Assembly: GCA_038215615.1 (NCBI GenBank) | Contig: JBBQQR010000011.1 | Coordinates: 9,599 to 73,598, forward strand | Direction of reading: 5' to 3' | From: Vulcanimicrobiales bacterium | GTDB taxonomy: Bacteria > Vulcanimicrobiota > Vulcanimicrobiia > Vulcanimicrobiales > Vulcanimicrobiaceae | Length of the DNA stretch: 64,000 nucleotides | Shown: positions 31,702 to 35,856 of the stretch, piece by piece | Layout: each line of letters opens with the position of its first letter | How positions within the stretch are numbered: the first letter of the stretch is position 1 | The notes under the pieces: model-generated | Databases searched by the model: none | Told to the model about the DNA's origin: nothing | What the model saw: only the letters and a program-made list of their open reading frames with translations | Made by a program: the position numbers and the translations under genes

Positions 31702-32046
31702 ATGCGGTTTCGCTTTGCGTCGCTCGCGCTCGCCCTTATCACGCCGTTTGCGCTGGCCGCGTGCGGCGGCAACTCGAAAACGCGCGCAACCGGCGCGCAG
31801 ACCGAAGCGCCGGTCAATGCCGGGCGCGGCCGATCGATCTATCTCGCGCAGTGCTCCGCGTGTCACGGACGCGACGGAACGGGGGGCCAAATCGGACCGC
31901 AGCTGCGCAACGAACACCTAAAGCGCACGTTTGCCCAAGTTCGCGATATCGTGCTCGATCCCGAACCGCCGATGCCTAAGCTTTTTCCGGCTCGCATGAG
32001 CGGCGCCGACGTGCGCGACGTTTCAGCCTACGTAGAAACACTCTGA
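31702..32046 (+). CDS. Lipoprotein monoheme cytochrome c
   Basis: Lipobox LAAC, CSACH, GPQL, distal MP. Confidence 0.9.
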   Translation: MRFRFASLALALITPFALAACGGNSKTRATGAQTEAPVNAGRGRSIYLAQCSACHGRDGTGGQIGPQLRNEHLKRTFAQVRDIVLDPEPPMPKLFPARMSGADVRDVSAYVETL

Positions 32047-33488
32047 TGCCGGTTGCCATGTACCGCTTCGCGCGCGATCTTCGTTTAGACGATCATGCGG
32101 GGCTGAGCGCGGCATCGGCACACGGCGACATTTTGCCCGTGCTGCTCGTGGACCATAAGCTCGAAGAACGCTTACGATCCTCGCCGCGGCGCGCGGCCTA
32201 TTTCTGTGGAGCAGCCGCGGCTTTGGATGCGGCACTTCGCGAACGCGGTTCTGCGCTCGTCGTGCGGCGCGGCGAGGCCGTCGAGCTGATGCGTCTGGCG
32301 GCAGAGCACGAAGCGGCAACGGTCGCGTGGAGCGCAAATTACGACCGTGCCGGGATTGCCGCCGATGCGGAGCTGCAGACGCTGATTGAAAAACGCGGCA
32401 TGCGCGCGATTGTGGTTCACGATGCGCCTGCAATTACTCCGGAAGAAAGCACCGCGGCGCGCAGTTCCGCGGGCGATGGCTATAAGGCATTCGTTCCTTA
32501 TTACGATATTTGGCGCGAACTCGAACCAGGCTCGTTCGAGGCGCCGTTATTCCTTTCGTTCGTGCCCGCCGGCGTGCCAAGCGAACCGCTTCCGCAACCC
32601 GCTGATTTTGGGTCCAGTAATTCGCTGCCCGACGTGGGCGCGCCGCGCGCGCGAGAGAAGCTCGAAGCGTTCTTGCGCGGGCCGGCGCTGCAATATTCAT
32701 TTGCCATAAACGTCCCGGCGGATGATCTCACGTCGCACCTGAGCGCGGACCTGACGTTTGGAACGATCGCCGCGCGCTCGATCGTGCGCGAGACGCGACT
32801 CCGGATGGACGATCCGTTCTTGCTTTCCGAGGAGCGTGCATCTTTACGGCTCTTCACCCGGGCGTTGGCGATGCGCGATTTTTTCCTGCAACTCTCTTGG
32901 TACAATCCGCAGACGAGCGACGGAGCTCTCCAAGAGAAGATGCGCGACTTTCCGTTTTCGCAATCCCATCCGCATTTGGAGGCGTGGCGCAATGGCCGCA
33001 CCGGTTTTCCGCTCGTGGACGCCGGCATGCGCCAGTTACGCGCGACGGGATGGATGCATCCGCGGGTGCGCGCCATTGCCGCCTCGTTCCTGTGTTTCGA
33101 TCTCGGAGTTGACTGGCGCGTGGGCATGGCCGAGTGGGACCGCTATTTAATCGAAGACGATCCGGCGCTTTCACGTGGAAACTGGCAGTGGATCGCGGGA
33201 GTCGGCGCCGATCTAGCGGCGTATCCGCGAATATACAATCCTTACAAACAGGCGCGGCGCTTCGATCCCGGCGGATCGTACGCGCGCAAGTGGATCGCGG
33301 AGCTGGCCCACGGACCTGCCGGTGGATTGACCCAGACGCAGCAAGGCTCGGCGCAGATCGAACTGCCGCTGGGTGGGGCCGAGCGCTATCCGCGGCCCGT
33401 GGTCGATCACGACCGCGCGGCGCGCGATTTCCTCGCGCGCTATCAGGAGTTCGTTACGCCGGCAGGCGGTCGTCGATCCAGTCGGTGA
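32046..33488 (+). CDS. Divergent photolyase/cryptochrome-family flavoprotein
   Basis: RDLRLDD, TSHLS, GRTGFPLVDAGMRQL..TGWMH, DWR, WQW, YPRPVVDH; TGATG coupling to cytochrome c. Confidence 0.9.
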   Translation: MPVAMYRFARDLRLDDHAGLSAASAHGDILPVLLVDHKLEERLRSSPRRAAYFCGAAAALDAALRERGSALVVRRGEAVELMRLAAEHEAATVAWSANYDRAGIAADAELQTLIEKRGMRAIVVHDAPAITPEESTAARSSAGDGYKAFVPYYDIWRELEPGSFEAPLFLSFVPAGVPSEPLPQPADFGSSNSLPDVGAPRAREKLEAFLRGPALQYSFAINVPADDLTSHLSADLTFGTIAARSIVRETRLRMDDPFLLSEERASLRLFTRALAMRDFFLQLSWYNPQTSDGALQEKMRDFPFSQSHPHLEAWRNGRTGFPLVDAGMRQLRATGWMHPRVRAIAASFLCFDLGVDWRVGMAEWDRYLIEDDPALSRGNWQWIAGVGADLAAYPRIYNPYKQARRFDPGGSYARKWIAELAHGPAGGLTQTQQGSAQIELPLGGAERYPRPVVDHDRAARDFLARYQEFVTPAGGRRSSR

Positions 33489-34032
33489 TCACGGGGACGC
33501 GCACGTCGTCGCCGTGCCATGCCTTAATCCCGTAGAAGACGCTCATGACGACAAAGATCGGAATGATAAAAGCGAGGACGATCGCGGCGCTGATTCCCAG
33601 AATCGGGATTCCCGCCATGAGCGTGAGGACGCCCCACAACCCGGCCATTCCTACATTGAAACCCAACGCCTGATAGGCGTGCTTGCGCAGCCGGCGCGAC
33701 TGTTTCCGATCGAAAAGCGATATGAGCGCCAGCGGCCACAACGGGTATCCCATGGCGACAAGCGCGCGCGACTCACCCGGATCCGACGGCTCGGCGACGG
33801 TGGCGCGAGCTTGCGGTGCGGGCTGCTGCTGCGCCGCCTTCCACCACTGTTGGGAGTGCGGCGGAACCTGTCCGGCGACGGACTTGTGCTGCGCATTTGC
33901 CGAGTCGATTTTGGCGGCCAGGCGGCAACTCGGGCACGTGCCGGCTTGATCGCGGCACGTGGCGCACACGGCCTTACTGCAGTCCGAGCAACGCGCGATT
34001 GACGGAACGTTTGCGTGAAAATAACAGTCCAT
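33454..34032 (-). CDS. B-box-type zinc finger plus DUF4870-like membrane domain
   Basis: CYFH...CSDC..VCATC...CPSC, Q/P linker, HAYQAL and three TMs, RVPVI; GAGG RBS before ATG 34032. Confidence 0.78.
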   Translation of the reverse strand: MDCYFHANVPSIARCSDCSKAVCATCRDQAGTCPSCRLAAKIDSANAQHKSVAGQVPPHSQQWWKAAQQQPAPQARATVAEPSDPGESRALVAMGYPLWPLALISLFDRKQSRRLRKHAYQALGFNVGMAGLWGVLTLMAGIPILGISAAIVLAFIIPIFVVMSVFYGIKAWHGDDVRVPVITDWIDDRLPA

Positions 34033-34066
34033 TTTTTGGCCCTCAGACAAGTTCTTTCGTTTTCAT

Positions 34067-34122: not shown

Positions 34123-35856
34123 ATGACGCGCCAACGCACGCTCGCGCGCCTAGCATCGGACGCTCGGCCCCGCCTTCCCAGTATCGTCACCGCAATCGTC
34201 CTGGGCACGATTGGCGGGCTGCTGGCATTGGTTCCGGCGCTAGGGCTGGGCCGTCTGCTCAAGGACGTGGTCATAGCGCGCCCGCCCAACATGAACGAGC
34301 TTTATCTCGTGCTGGCGATCGTCTGGGCTTCCTTAATCGTGGCCGCATTGACGAATTATGGGTCGAGCTATCTGCTCGCCTCCAGTGGGCAGTCGCTCAT
34401 TGCAAGCTTGCGCGTCCGTTTGTTTTCCCGGTTGCTGCACTTGCCGCGGGGCGAATTTGACAAGTGGCGTCCCGGCGAACTGATTTCACGCTTCAGCACG
34501 GACATGCAAATGATGACCGACGCGGTCACGATTTCGTTGCCGCAATTGATCACCACGTCGGTCACGTTCTTGTCGTCCTTTGCGTACATGCTCTATTTGG
34601 ACTGGCTGCTGACGTGTTCGCTGATCGTCATCGCACCGCTCGTCTCGCTGGCGGTTTCGCGTTTTCAACGCCTCATTTCACAAGCAACGACGCGTTCTCA
34701 GGAACGCATAGCTGACCTATCGGCCAATTTGACCGAGGTGCTTGGCAGTCAACGCGTGATCAAGGCGTTCGCCCGGGAGAACTATGAAACTGGGCGTTTT
34801 TCGCGGCGCAACGCCGAGTATTTCGAAACGTACATGAAGTTGACGCAGTTCATTCAGACGCAGCCGGTCGTGATTTCGGCATTCATCTCGACCGCCGCTG
34901 CGATCATCATCTGGCTTTCGATCCGGGAAGTTGTCTTGGGGCGGCTCAACGTCGGGGATCTCTTCGTTTATTGGATGCTGCTCGTAAACTTGGTCAACCC
35001 CATGAATCGCTTTGCCGCATTTACGGGCGAAATTAGTAAAGCAGTTGTCGGCTCCGGGCGCGTGTACGAGTTGCTGGACTTGCCCGTCGAACGCGCCGAT
35101 AAGCCGGGCGCGGTTCCGTTACCGGAAGTGCGCGGACGAATCCAGTTCGACAACGTCGATTTTGCCTACGAACCGGGCGCGCCGGTGCTGCAAAAGTTTA
35201 ACGCGACTATTGAGAAGGGCGAAATCATCGCGCTGGTCGGGCCTTCGGGAGCCGGTAAGACGACGATCGTGAACCTCGTCCCACGTTTCTACGAACCGCA
35301 GGCGGGTCGTATTACGCTCGACGGAATCGATCTCGCGGACGTGCGGCTGCACGACTTGCGCGACGCGATCGCCATCGTGCCGCAAGAGGCGCAGCTTTTC
35401 CGCGGCAGCATCGCCGACAACATCCGCTACGGCCGTCTCGACGCGACCGACGAGGAGGTGCTCGCGGCCGCGCGGGAAGCGAACGTGGATGAATTTGCGA
35501 GCGGTTTCCCTGACGGGTACGCTACCGAGGTCGGCGAGCGCGGAACGCGGCTCTCGGGCGGGCAGCGCCAGCGCGTTTCGATAGCGCGAGCCATTCTGCG
35601 CGATCCGCGGATCCTTATATTAGATGAAGCGACCAGCGCGCTCGACAGCCATTCCGAGGCGCTGATCGAAAGTGCCCTCGACCGGTTGCTGGCCGGTCGG
35701 ACGACCCTCATCATCGCACACCGCCTCTCAACGATCCGCCGCGCGAATACCATCCTTTATATCGAGGCCGGCCGCGTCATCGAAATGGGGTCGCACGAAT
35801 CGCTGTTGGCGCGCGGCGGCGCCTACGCTCATCTGCACGCCACCCAGTTCGCTTGA
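34123..35856 (+). CDS. ABC exporter, fused TMD-NBD (MsbA-like)
   Basis: TM domain, GPSGAGKT, LSGGQRQR, DEATSALD, AHRLST. Confidence 0.95.
   Translation: MTRQRTLARLASDARPRLPSIVTAIVLGTIGGLLALVPALGLGRLLKDVVIARPPNMNELYLVLAIVWASLIVAALTNYGSSYLLASSGQSLIASLRVRLFSRLLHLPRGEFDKWRPGELISRFSTDMQMMTDAVTISLPQLITTSVTFLSSFAYMLYLDWLLTCSLIVIAPLVSLAVSRFQRLISQATTRSQERIADLSANLTEVLGSQRVIKAFARENYETGRFSRRNAEYFETYMKLTQFIQTQPVVISAFISTAAAIIIWLSIREVVLGRLNVGDLFVYWMLLVNLVNPMNRFAAFTGEISKAVVGSGRVYELLDLPVERADKPGAVPLPEVRGRIQFDNVDFAYEPGAPVLQKFNATIEKGEIIALVGPSGAGKTTIVNLVPRFYEPQAGRITLDGIDLADVRLHDLRDAIAIVPQEAQLFRGSIADNIRYGRLDATDEEVLAAAREANVDEFASGFPDGYATEVGERGTRLSGGQRQRVSIARAILRDPRILILDEATSALDSHSEALIESALDRLLAGRTTLIIAHRLSTIRRANTILYIEAGRVIEMGSHESLLARGGAYAHLHATQFA

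Follow-up and report, generated by a model that had tools for sequence, protein, structure and literature searches.

A photolyase-fold protein lacking the dimer-repair residues and carrying a candidate sliding-clamp motif is retained across the bacterial class Vulcanimicrobiia

A photolyase-like gene was analyzed in a 64,000-nucleotide stretch of DNA from a Vulcanimicrobiales bacterium (GenBank assembly GCA_038215615.1, contig JBBQQR010000011.1, positions 9,599 to 73,598), which is referred to here as the window. The open reading frame at 32046-33488 on the forward strand is uninterrupted, as an earlier sequence-only reading had stated, and encodes P0001, a protein of 480 amino acids with both photolyase Pfam domains, PF00875 and PF03441. 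We propose, tentatively, that P0001 is a repair-dead photolyase paralog which is tethered to the replication sliding clamp and acts on DNA without light. The lesion pocket and the residue facing flavin N5 have been lost, the gene is under purifying selection and retained throughout the class, and a clamp-type motif is confined to the family. Docking of this motif on the clamp protein DnaN is predicted by a structural model, and from these results we infer that the protein may bind both the clamp and DNA and hand damaged sites over to other enzymes.

The fold, an alpha/beta domain followed by a helical domain for flavin adenine dinucleotide (FAD), is that of cyclobutane pyrimidine dimer (CPD) photolyases of classes I and III, which are also the best solved relatives of P0001 (2e-57 to 7.5e-53, HMMER). 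The AlphaFold model has a mean predicted local distance difference test (pLDDT) of 81.3 and a Foldseek template modelling (TM) score of 0.86 to 1QNF. Proteins of this type are named deoxyribodipyrimidine photo-lyase in databases, while P0001 falls under every NCBIfam cut-off that it touches: 250.1 versus 884.6 for TIGR03556, 222.8 versus 506 for PRK10674, 149.8 versus 317.05 for TIGR02765 (CRY-DASH) and 183.9 versus 603.85 for TIGR02766 (plant cryptochrome). The source genome (2.21 Mb, 100% complete) holds P0001 as the sole gene of the photolyase/cryptochrome family that was found; no second one appeared in searches with PF03441 (1 match), PF00875 (1), PF04244 (0) and tblastn.

Residues of E. 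coli photolyase are numbered here without Met1. Eight substitutions relative to that enzyme had been proposed by eye, and the same map emerged when P0001 was aligned with HMMER to 1DNP, the E. coli photolyase, and with MAFFT to the E. coli Phr sequence of NC_000913.3, which rules out misalignment as their cause: R226 to I221, E274 to A273, W277 to M276, W306 to F304, N341 to P339, M345 to A343, D372 to E370 and N378 to S376. The equivalents of W359, W382 and W384 are kept, as had also been noted, at W357, W380 and W382, and the tryptophan described as extra, W364, corresponds to E. coli F366. The substrate-binding sites of CPD photolyase are given as E274, W277, N341, M345 and W384 (PMC8476157), of which P0001 keeps W384 only. 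Among the best 120 homologues, E274 is replaced by S (105) or A (15), W277 by M (69), L (42), F (6), Q (2) or T (1), W306 by F (119) or I (1), N341 by P (120), M345 by A (62), S (49), Y (4), F (4) or T (1), D372 by E (120), N378 by A (106), S (13) or G (1), and F366 by W (120).

For wider comparison the family was divided into the clade of the window (136 proteins), a sister family (4) and a deep clade (103, after 5 hits shorter than 400 amino acids were dropped), with 31 photolyases as controls; the groups were defined by the retrieving query and the tree, and kin within them are not independent. None of E274, W277, N341 and M345 is kept in 136/136 members of the window clade, 4/4 of the sister family and 96/103 of the deep clade (236/243 in all), and the remaining 7 deep-clade members keep W277 and have lost the other three. 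All four are kept in 30 of the 31 controls, in which R226, W277, N341, M345, D372 and N378 are invariant and E274 is present in 30. R226 is retained in all 4 sister-family members, and F396 is replaced by P in 243/243 family members. The pocket replacements follow the pattern S-M/L-P-A/S-W in the window clade and R/Q-L-Q-I/V-W/R in the deep clade, where the position of W384 is R in 45/103; these differences speak for a loss of CPD function and against a single new substrate common to the clades. The suggestion of the sequence-only reading that this is not a standard CPD repair enzyme is thus very probably correct for P0001, since four substrate residues and N378 have been lost together.

Reportedly, repair depends critically on N378, and photoreduction in vitro on W306. 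N378 is kept in 0/243 family members, with A, S or G, or else C, A or S, in its place. The flavin-pocket sites listed in PMC9356274 are R344, D372, A377, N378 and G381, where a bulky residue at 377 together with N381 marks (6-4) photolyases and animal cryptochromes and C378 marks type I insect cryptochromes. Across these five sites the commonest pattern in the window clade is R-E-L-A-N (109/136; R-E-L-S-N in P0001), that of the deep clade is A-E-L-C-N or A-A-L-C-N (78/103), and 30/31 controls show R-D-A/Q/S-N-G. Position 377 is L in 126/136 and 92/103 members of the two clades, position 381 is N in 242/243 proteins, and position 378 is C in 99/103 of the deep clade, so that the sequence pattern of the pocket appears cryptochrome-like. 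In the Arg-Asp bridge of the flavin, R344-D372, the window clade keeps R and has E for D in 134/136. Separately, it can be observed that the Arg is replaced by A or G in 103/103 deep-clade proteins (L081-L087, P0122-P0229), which often lack D372, W338 and W384 as well. P0001 and its clade keep the pyrophosphate-loop residues Y217, T229, S230 and L232, together with R277, W336, R342 and D372. FAD binding is therefore likely in the window clade, because the pyrophosphate side is largely kept, and less sure in the deep clade; the window clade probably still binds FAD, with a pocket that no longer favours the fully reduced form used in catalysis.

The Trp triad W382-W359-W306 is incomplete in P0001, which carries F304. 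W359 and W382 equivalents are invariant in the family, W316 is present in 240/243, and the triad is mostly full in the deep clade, where W306 is kept in 78/103. The position of W364 is W in 135/136 window-clade and 101/103 deep-clade proteins and F in 4/4 of the sister family, which weakens the alternative electron path suggested for W364 in the sequence-only reading. The loss of W306, real as it is, had been overweighted in the sequence-only reading, because short photolyase-like proteins, a described photolyase class, also lack this residue (PMC8476157) and most deep-clade members retain it. Moreover, photolyases do not always need the triad in vivo (PMC7560933).

Named relatives of P0001 belong to Vulcanimicrobiota (Eremiobacterota), the closest being labelled Ca. 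Rubrimentiphilum. The P0001 query matches 323/331 genomes of the class at 1e-20; in 11 of these the best E value exceeds 1e-65 and the hits are canonical enzymes or fragments (the 2 inspected were canonical), so that, as read from the table, about 312/331 genomes hold the family gene with E values no higher than 2.1e-71. Photolyases with a canonical score (PF03441 E <=2e-77) were counted by eye in about 97/332 class genomes (~30%). Of 30 canonical loci returned, the 28 with long frames that were inspected all keep R226, W277, N341, M345, D372 and N378. These tallies include 12 genomes flagged as unpublished, the origin of controls L008 and L026 and of synteny locus L079. The family gene is close to a core gene of the class, and its frequency beside that of canonical enzymes points to a housekeeping role rather than one governed by the need for photoreactivation.

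Trees were inferred under LG+G4 from a sample without plant or animal sequences. The family is monophyletic, with Shimodaira-Hasegawa-like approximate likelihood ratio test (SH-aLRT) support of 100 in an 89-row tree and 100/100 in a 52-row tree from which 37 rows were left out. Within it the deep clade branches outside the other two groups, matching host taxonomy, and the gene is vertically inherited. The family falls among class I/III CPD photolyases; a position beside class III-type and Thermus enzymes is supported at 93/95 in the 52-row tree and unresolved in the 89-row tree. Within this sampling, the alignment and phylogeny that had been suggested as a check show the residues as lost and the proteins as a subfamily of their own. 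Over 7 close orthologues (21 pairs; dS 0.57-1.67) the mean ratio of nonsynonymous to synonymous rates (dN/dS) is 0.118 (range 0.089-0.221), a mean inside the 0.073-0.211 of six neighbour genes. Beyond the class, the best plasmid match is at 35% and viral matches, all canonical-like, at 24-38%; atlas clusters are generic, and 4 other paralogues checked in the phylum are of a different photolyase-like type. No fusion of the family gene was found among 8000 candidates of 854-2435 amino acids at E 1e-30, which is weak evidence. Two side observations concern relatives. One deep-clade member, P0210, comes from a contig of 4.2 kb that carries the NCBI label Ca. Acidoferrales; mis-binning or transfer is possible. 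Viral photolyases (L197-L276) commonly have Q at E274 and L at M345 and keep W277, N341 and N378, and a few metagenome proteins are alike.

A feature that had gone unmentioned in the sequence-only reading is QIELPL, residues 437-442. The hexameric clamp motif is described as Q-phi-x-[L/M]-x-[F/L], phi standing for a hydrophobic residue, and the C-terminal clamp motif of E. coli Pol III alpha as QVELEF (PMC11139829). With the pentamer also allowed, the strict motif occurs in the loop of 122/136 window-clade, 4/4 sister-family and 79/103 deep-clade proteins (205/243), and the deep-clade count rises to 100/103 when position 2 may also be T or position 4 also F. The strict motif occurs in 0/31 controls, 0/79 viral and 0/70 non-family metagenome photolyases (0/180), while shuffled loops match at 2.7%. 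In a metagenome scan 9/10 family members carry it, the tenth reading QTELPL. Q437 is conserved in 239/243, L440 in 234/243 and L/F442 in 238/243, with variable flanks; variants such as QLHLPL, QLTLDL, QLALPL, QLTLSL and QIELGF differ at positions 2, 4 and 6 as the clamp consensus allows. The block lies in a region of low model confidence, with pLDDT below 50 at residues 437-445 of the AlphaFold model and a mean of 53, the lowest, in a second model averaging 91. Furthermore, the upstream P-W anchor is found in 0/136 window-clade proteins (versus 101/103 in the deep clade and 27/31 controls) and the loop there varies from 24 to 31 residues, yet the motif is kept, which argues against a purely structural reading. 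DnaE, DinB and MutS of the source genome carry pentameric motifs (QASLF, QQTLF and QMTFL), so the clamp code is in use in this organism. A genome-wide motif scan for further clamp partners returned mostly chance matches and was dropped.

For a model of the complex, a 53-residue piece of P0001 (residues 418-470) was folded with DnaN of the source genome, alongside 3 controls. The docking score was 0.67, against 0.00 for the best control; the mark applied is reached by 116/157 solved complexes and 2/215 mismatched pairs. At least 40% of contacts are shared between runs, with a partner pLDDT of 39-45. Confident contacts involve residues 435-444 only, on DnaN residues 171-176, 244-249, 322, 346, 348 and 365-371, which we take to be the peptide pocket. 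Judged from the motif and this model, clamp binding by the family is likely to be real. Regarding DNA, the groove residues R340, R395, N398-P399-Q402 and Y146-x-x-F149, to which we presume a DNA-binding role, are kept.

Taken together, the family probably works like a clamp-tethered DNA-maintenance factor. A photolyase paralog without dimer-repair residues would ride DnaN via QIELPL and would bind DNA through its retained basic groove; rather than splitting dimers by itself, it might mark or protect DNA that is damaged or gapped so that repair can proceed without light, with UvrABC or translesion enzymes possibly taking over. In the dark, photolyases can support excision repair. A dark-repair role fits retention of the family in a class where photoreactivation is patchy. 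The light-independent DNA-binding factor that the sequence-only reading offered as one option gains new support from the clamp motif, although its DNA-binding part is not assured.

Several observations weigh against this proposal. The docking pass may reflect memory of solved clamp-peptide complexes, and it covers the 53-residue piece only. DNA binding is uncertain because the window clade lacks R226 and because residues 200-470 carry almost no net charge (median 0, against 3 in controls); R457 is also replaced, by an R one position on. A similar pattern gives 32 matches in 1.1 million six-frame residues of the source genome, and of 8 that were checked 6 belong to Pfam families with no connection to DNA metabolism, while 2 have no family; 49/103 deep-clade proteins match the motif elsewhere too. 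Counting from the Y of a YP pair, the motif is ungapped to the canonical segment, where 19/31 controls have Q followed by G-C/V; the residues new to the family are the aliphatic at position 2, L at 4 and L/F at 6. Since this Q is ancestral and the spacer from motif to YP is 5 residues in 226/243 members, part of the conservation may be structural, and DSSP places the deep-clade Q in a short helix. The best-kept neighbours, encoding a cytochrome c, a DUF4870 protein and an ABC (ATP-binding cassette) exporter, are not DNA-repair genes. Finally, a LexA-type GAAC-N4-GTTC box was found in 0/35 loci within 700 bases upstream, a weak test because none lies near uvrA either.

A rather improbable alternative is a bacterial cryptochrome, a blue-light or redox sensor with a radical-forming flavin, in which the QIELPL loop would be a gated output engaging the clamp or another partner in one state. 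The bulky 377, N381 and, in the deep clade, C378 resemble insect type I cryptochromes (PMC9356274), S and L at E274 and W277 parallel Arabidopsis CRY1 in a printed alignment, and the two invariant tryptophans, W316 and the mostly full deep-clade triad also agree with this reading. Nevertheless, position 378 of the window clade is A or S, not D or C, and the deep clade has lost the Arg-Asp bridge. The window clade lacks W306 and also the terminal aromatic of class III, for which we assume position 363 to be the alternative site in that electron path; it is E in 124/136. A C-terminal extension is missing, the gene is retained throughout the class, and the source genome has no match to a photosynthetic reaction centre (PF00124). 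A bolder variant, unlikely in our view, places a class-wide cryptochrome on the replisome: a light or redox change of the flavin would expose the clamp loop, occupy DnaN and pause or redirect replication. Such a protein would descend from a class I/III photolyase by a route separate from that of plant and animal cryptochromes, the deep clade converging on an insect-type flavin pocket.

Equally unlikely is that the motif is structural or binds a partner other than the clamp, P0001 being a scaffold, with or without bound flavin, whose role has nothing to do with DNA and may involve its neighbours. The ancestral Q, the fixed spacing and the commonness of chance matches agree with this, as do the residues missing from the deep clade (R344, often D372, W338 and W384). 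A trypanosome photolyase homologue, which presumably serves mitoribosome assembly, is present in PDB 7PUA. In addition, a cytochrome c gene lies directly upstream of the photolyase-like gene in 58/65 loci (missing in 7, of which one is truncated) and the DUF4870 gene and ABC exporter downstream in 63/65 each, in all three families; several of the 65 synteny loci are the same genome twice and one is truncated. However, positions 2, 4 and 6 vary according to the clamp consensus, pLDDT is low in both models and the docking test was passed. The cytochrome carries a lipoprotein-type signal, the DUF4870 gene is on the opposite strand, and gene order is generally slow to change. Because wide synteny extends to other genes such as queG and moaA, because the cytochrome is probably exported and because 7 loci lack it, any link with the neighbours is treated as putative.

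It is less likely still that P0001 is a clamp-tethered photoenzyme for another lesion, smaller side chains widening the pocket for a bulkier adduct reversed at stalled forks. Small residues at 274 and 345 in the window clade, the invariant P339, the retained equivalents of W384, R342 and R397, the flexible loop 390-394 of the model and the lack of other family members in the source genome would accommodate such a function. Against it, loss of N378 with a bulky 377 disfavours a fully reduced flavin (PMC9356274), the pocket differs between clades, contrary to one shared substrate, and no (6-4)-type His occupies the M345 position. That P0001 is an ordinary CPD photolyase tolerating its substitutions, as its database label says, is very improbable: it has an ordinary fold and length, no other family member accompanies it in a complete genome, and W306 is dispensable in some photolyases (PMC7560933, PMC8476157), but four substrate residues and N378 are lost, NCBIfam scores lie far below cut-off, and about 30% of relatives have a canonical enzyme in addition to the family member. 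A decaying gene under relaxed selection, which the many changed conserved residues might suggest, can be dismissed, because the dN/dS that had been named as the test, the near-invariant substitutions in 120 homologues, open frames throughout the class and a tree that follows host families all refute it.

Table 1. Positions in the window of the photolyase-like gene, its diagnostic residues and the adjoining genes
Feature	Positions	Strand	Basis
Photolyase-fold protein P0001, 480 amino acids	32046..33488	+	Pfam, HMMER, Foldseek TM 0.86 to 1QNF
I221, replaces E. coli R226	32706..32708	+	alignment
A273 and M276, replace lesion-pocket E274 and W277	32862..32873	+	alignment
F304, replaces distal triad W306 (W in 78/103 of the deep clade)	32955..32957	+	alignment
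P339-R-V-R342-A343 (N341 to P, M345 to A; R344 equivalent kept)	33060..33074	+	alignment
W357 (retained medial Trp of the triad) through W364 (E. coli F366)	33114..33137	+	alignment
Flavin-ring pocket E370/L375/S376/N379 (E. coli D372/A377/N378/G381), then W380 and W382	33153..33191	+	alignment; site roles from PMC9356274
QIELPL, residues 437-442, hexameric beta-clamp-binding-type motif in low-confidence loop	33354..33371	+	consensus match, pLDDT, docking model
Small c-type cytochrome, N-terminal lipoprotein-type signal; stop overlaps photolyase start (TGATG)	31702..32046	+	domain search, signal
Convergent DUF4870 gene, N-terminal Cys/His cluster; overlaps photolyase 3' end by 35 bases	33454..34050	-	domain search
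ABC exporter, membrane and ATPase domains	34123..35856	+	domain search

Further observations were made on the surroundings of the gene. In loci of the sister family and deep clade, the cytochrome and photolyase-like genes are 74-145 bases apart, and by eye the gap appears to contain a GC-rich hairpin. The segment 30127-31664 (+) encodes an extracytoplasmic function (ECF) sigma factor and, after it, a probable anti-sigma protein with a TonB_C domain fused at its C-terminus; this pair is upstream in many loci of the window clade and absent from those of the other two groups. A conserved opposite-strand ORF of ~165 amino acids, acetyltransferase-like by eye, is located just upstream of the cytochrome/photolyase gene at L039:5069-5596 (-) and in 16 other loci, and does not occur in the window. 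Among host repair genes, UvrA is present in the source genome and UvdE gave no match there. A perfect GAAC-N4-GTTC palindrome stands upstream of an imuB-like gene (G000:C12:1954-1969), with a near-identical copy at C26:21624, and is a candidate LexA box for the phylum. Regarding clamp-type motifs in other proteins, members of a different photolyase-like type (NFRMRAM, next to CRY-DASH genes) at L111:335-1951, on a Ralstonia wenshanensis plasmid, and at L118:17-1348 end in QLSLDF or QLSWEF, and four similar proteins of the phylum (L190-L193) were negative in the motif test. Going by these termini, the superfamily may have acquired tethering to the clamp on more than one occasion.

Because it departs from CPD photolyases, CRY-DASH and plant and animal cryptochromes alike, the family is best filed as a new and apparently undescribed subfamily of the photolyase/cryptochrome superfamily. 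No description was found in the literature searched, which excluded subscription journals and supplements, whose trees could include these proteins, and no paper with the word photolyase was among the clamp-term matches listed. A near-core gene of a widespread soil class bears the label of an ordinary photolyase in the databases consulted, and about two thirds of the class genomes, including that of the source, may lack class I/III photoreactivation. The natural Ala, Ser and Cys variants at the N5 position, with a clade devoid of the Arg-Asp bridge, offer material on the change from photolyase to cryptochrome. If the link to the clamp is true, the photolyase fold would join the known beta-clamp partners, and the dark role noted above for photolyases would here have become, in nature, the only one.

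In comparison with known systems, the two-domain fold, the FAD pyrophosphate loop and W359/W382/W384 are common to P0001 and class I/III CPD photolyases (Anacystis 1QNF/1TEZ, E. coli 1DNP, Agrobacterium PhrA 4U63). Those enzymes keep E274, W277, N341, M345, N378 and a small residue at 377, whereas the family has lost them, is bulky at 377, has W for F366 and P for F396, and carries the clamp-type motif. Diagnostic residues of CRY-DASH, plant cryptochrome and (6-4)/animal types are tabulated in PMC7560933. The plant cryptochrome Arabidopsis CRY1 (1U3C; E 1.6e-48) has lost the repair pocket alike, with S and L at E274/W277, but plant cryptochromes have Asp at N5, V and Y at M345 and W384, and a C-terminal extension, none of which occurs in P0001 with its S376, A343, W382 and 480 residues; they also have the distal Trp that the window clade lacks. 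Drosophila CRY, of insect type I, is matched by the deep clade in the bulky 377, C378 and N381 (L-C-N in at least 84/103; PMC9356274). It is distant in sequence (E about 1e-24) and differs in the Arg-Asp bridge missing from the deep clade, in the absence of His at the M345 position of the family and in S at position 378 of P0001. CRY-DASH proteins share GNW and an AGVG-type sequence after the N5 residue, together with N381; unlike them, the family lacks Q at 345 and Y at 384, has lost N378 and forms a separate branch. (6-4) photolyases and animal cryptochromes have His at the M345 position (PMC7560933), where the window clade has A/S and the deep clade I/V. Finally, the hexameric clamp motifs of Pol III alpha (QVELEF), Pol IV (QLVLGL) and Hda resemble QIELPL in the pattern Q-phi-x-L-x-[L/F], in a probable loop location and in the modelled pocket of DnaN; the clamp-motif review (PMC11139829) does not contain the word photolyase, and here the motif is borne on a photolyase fold.

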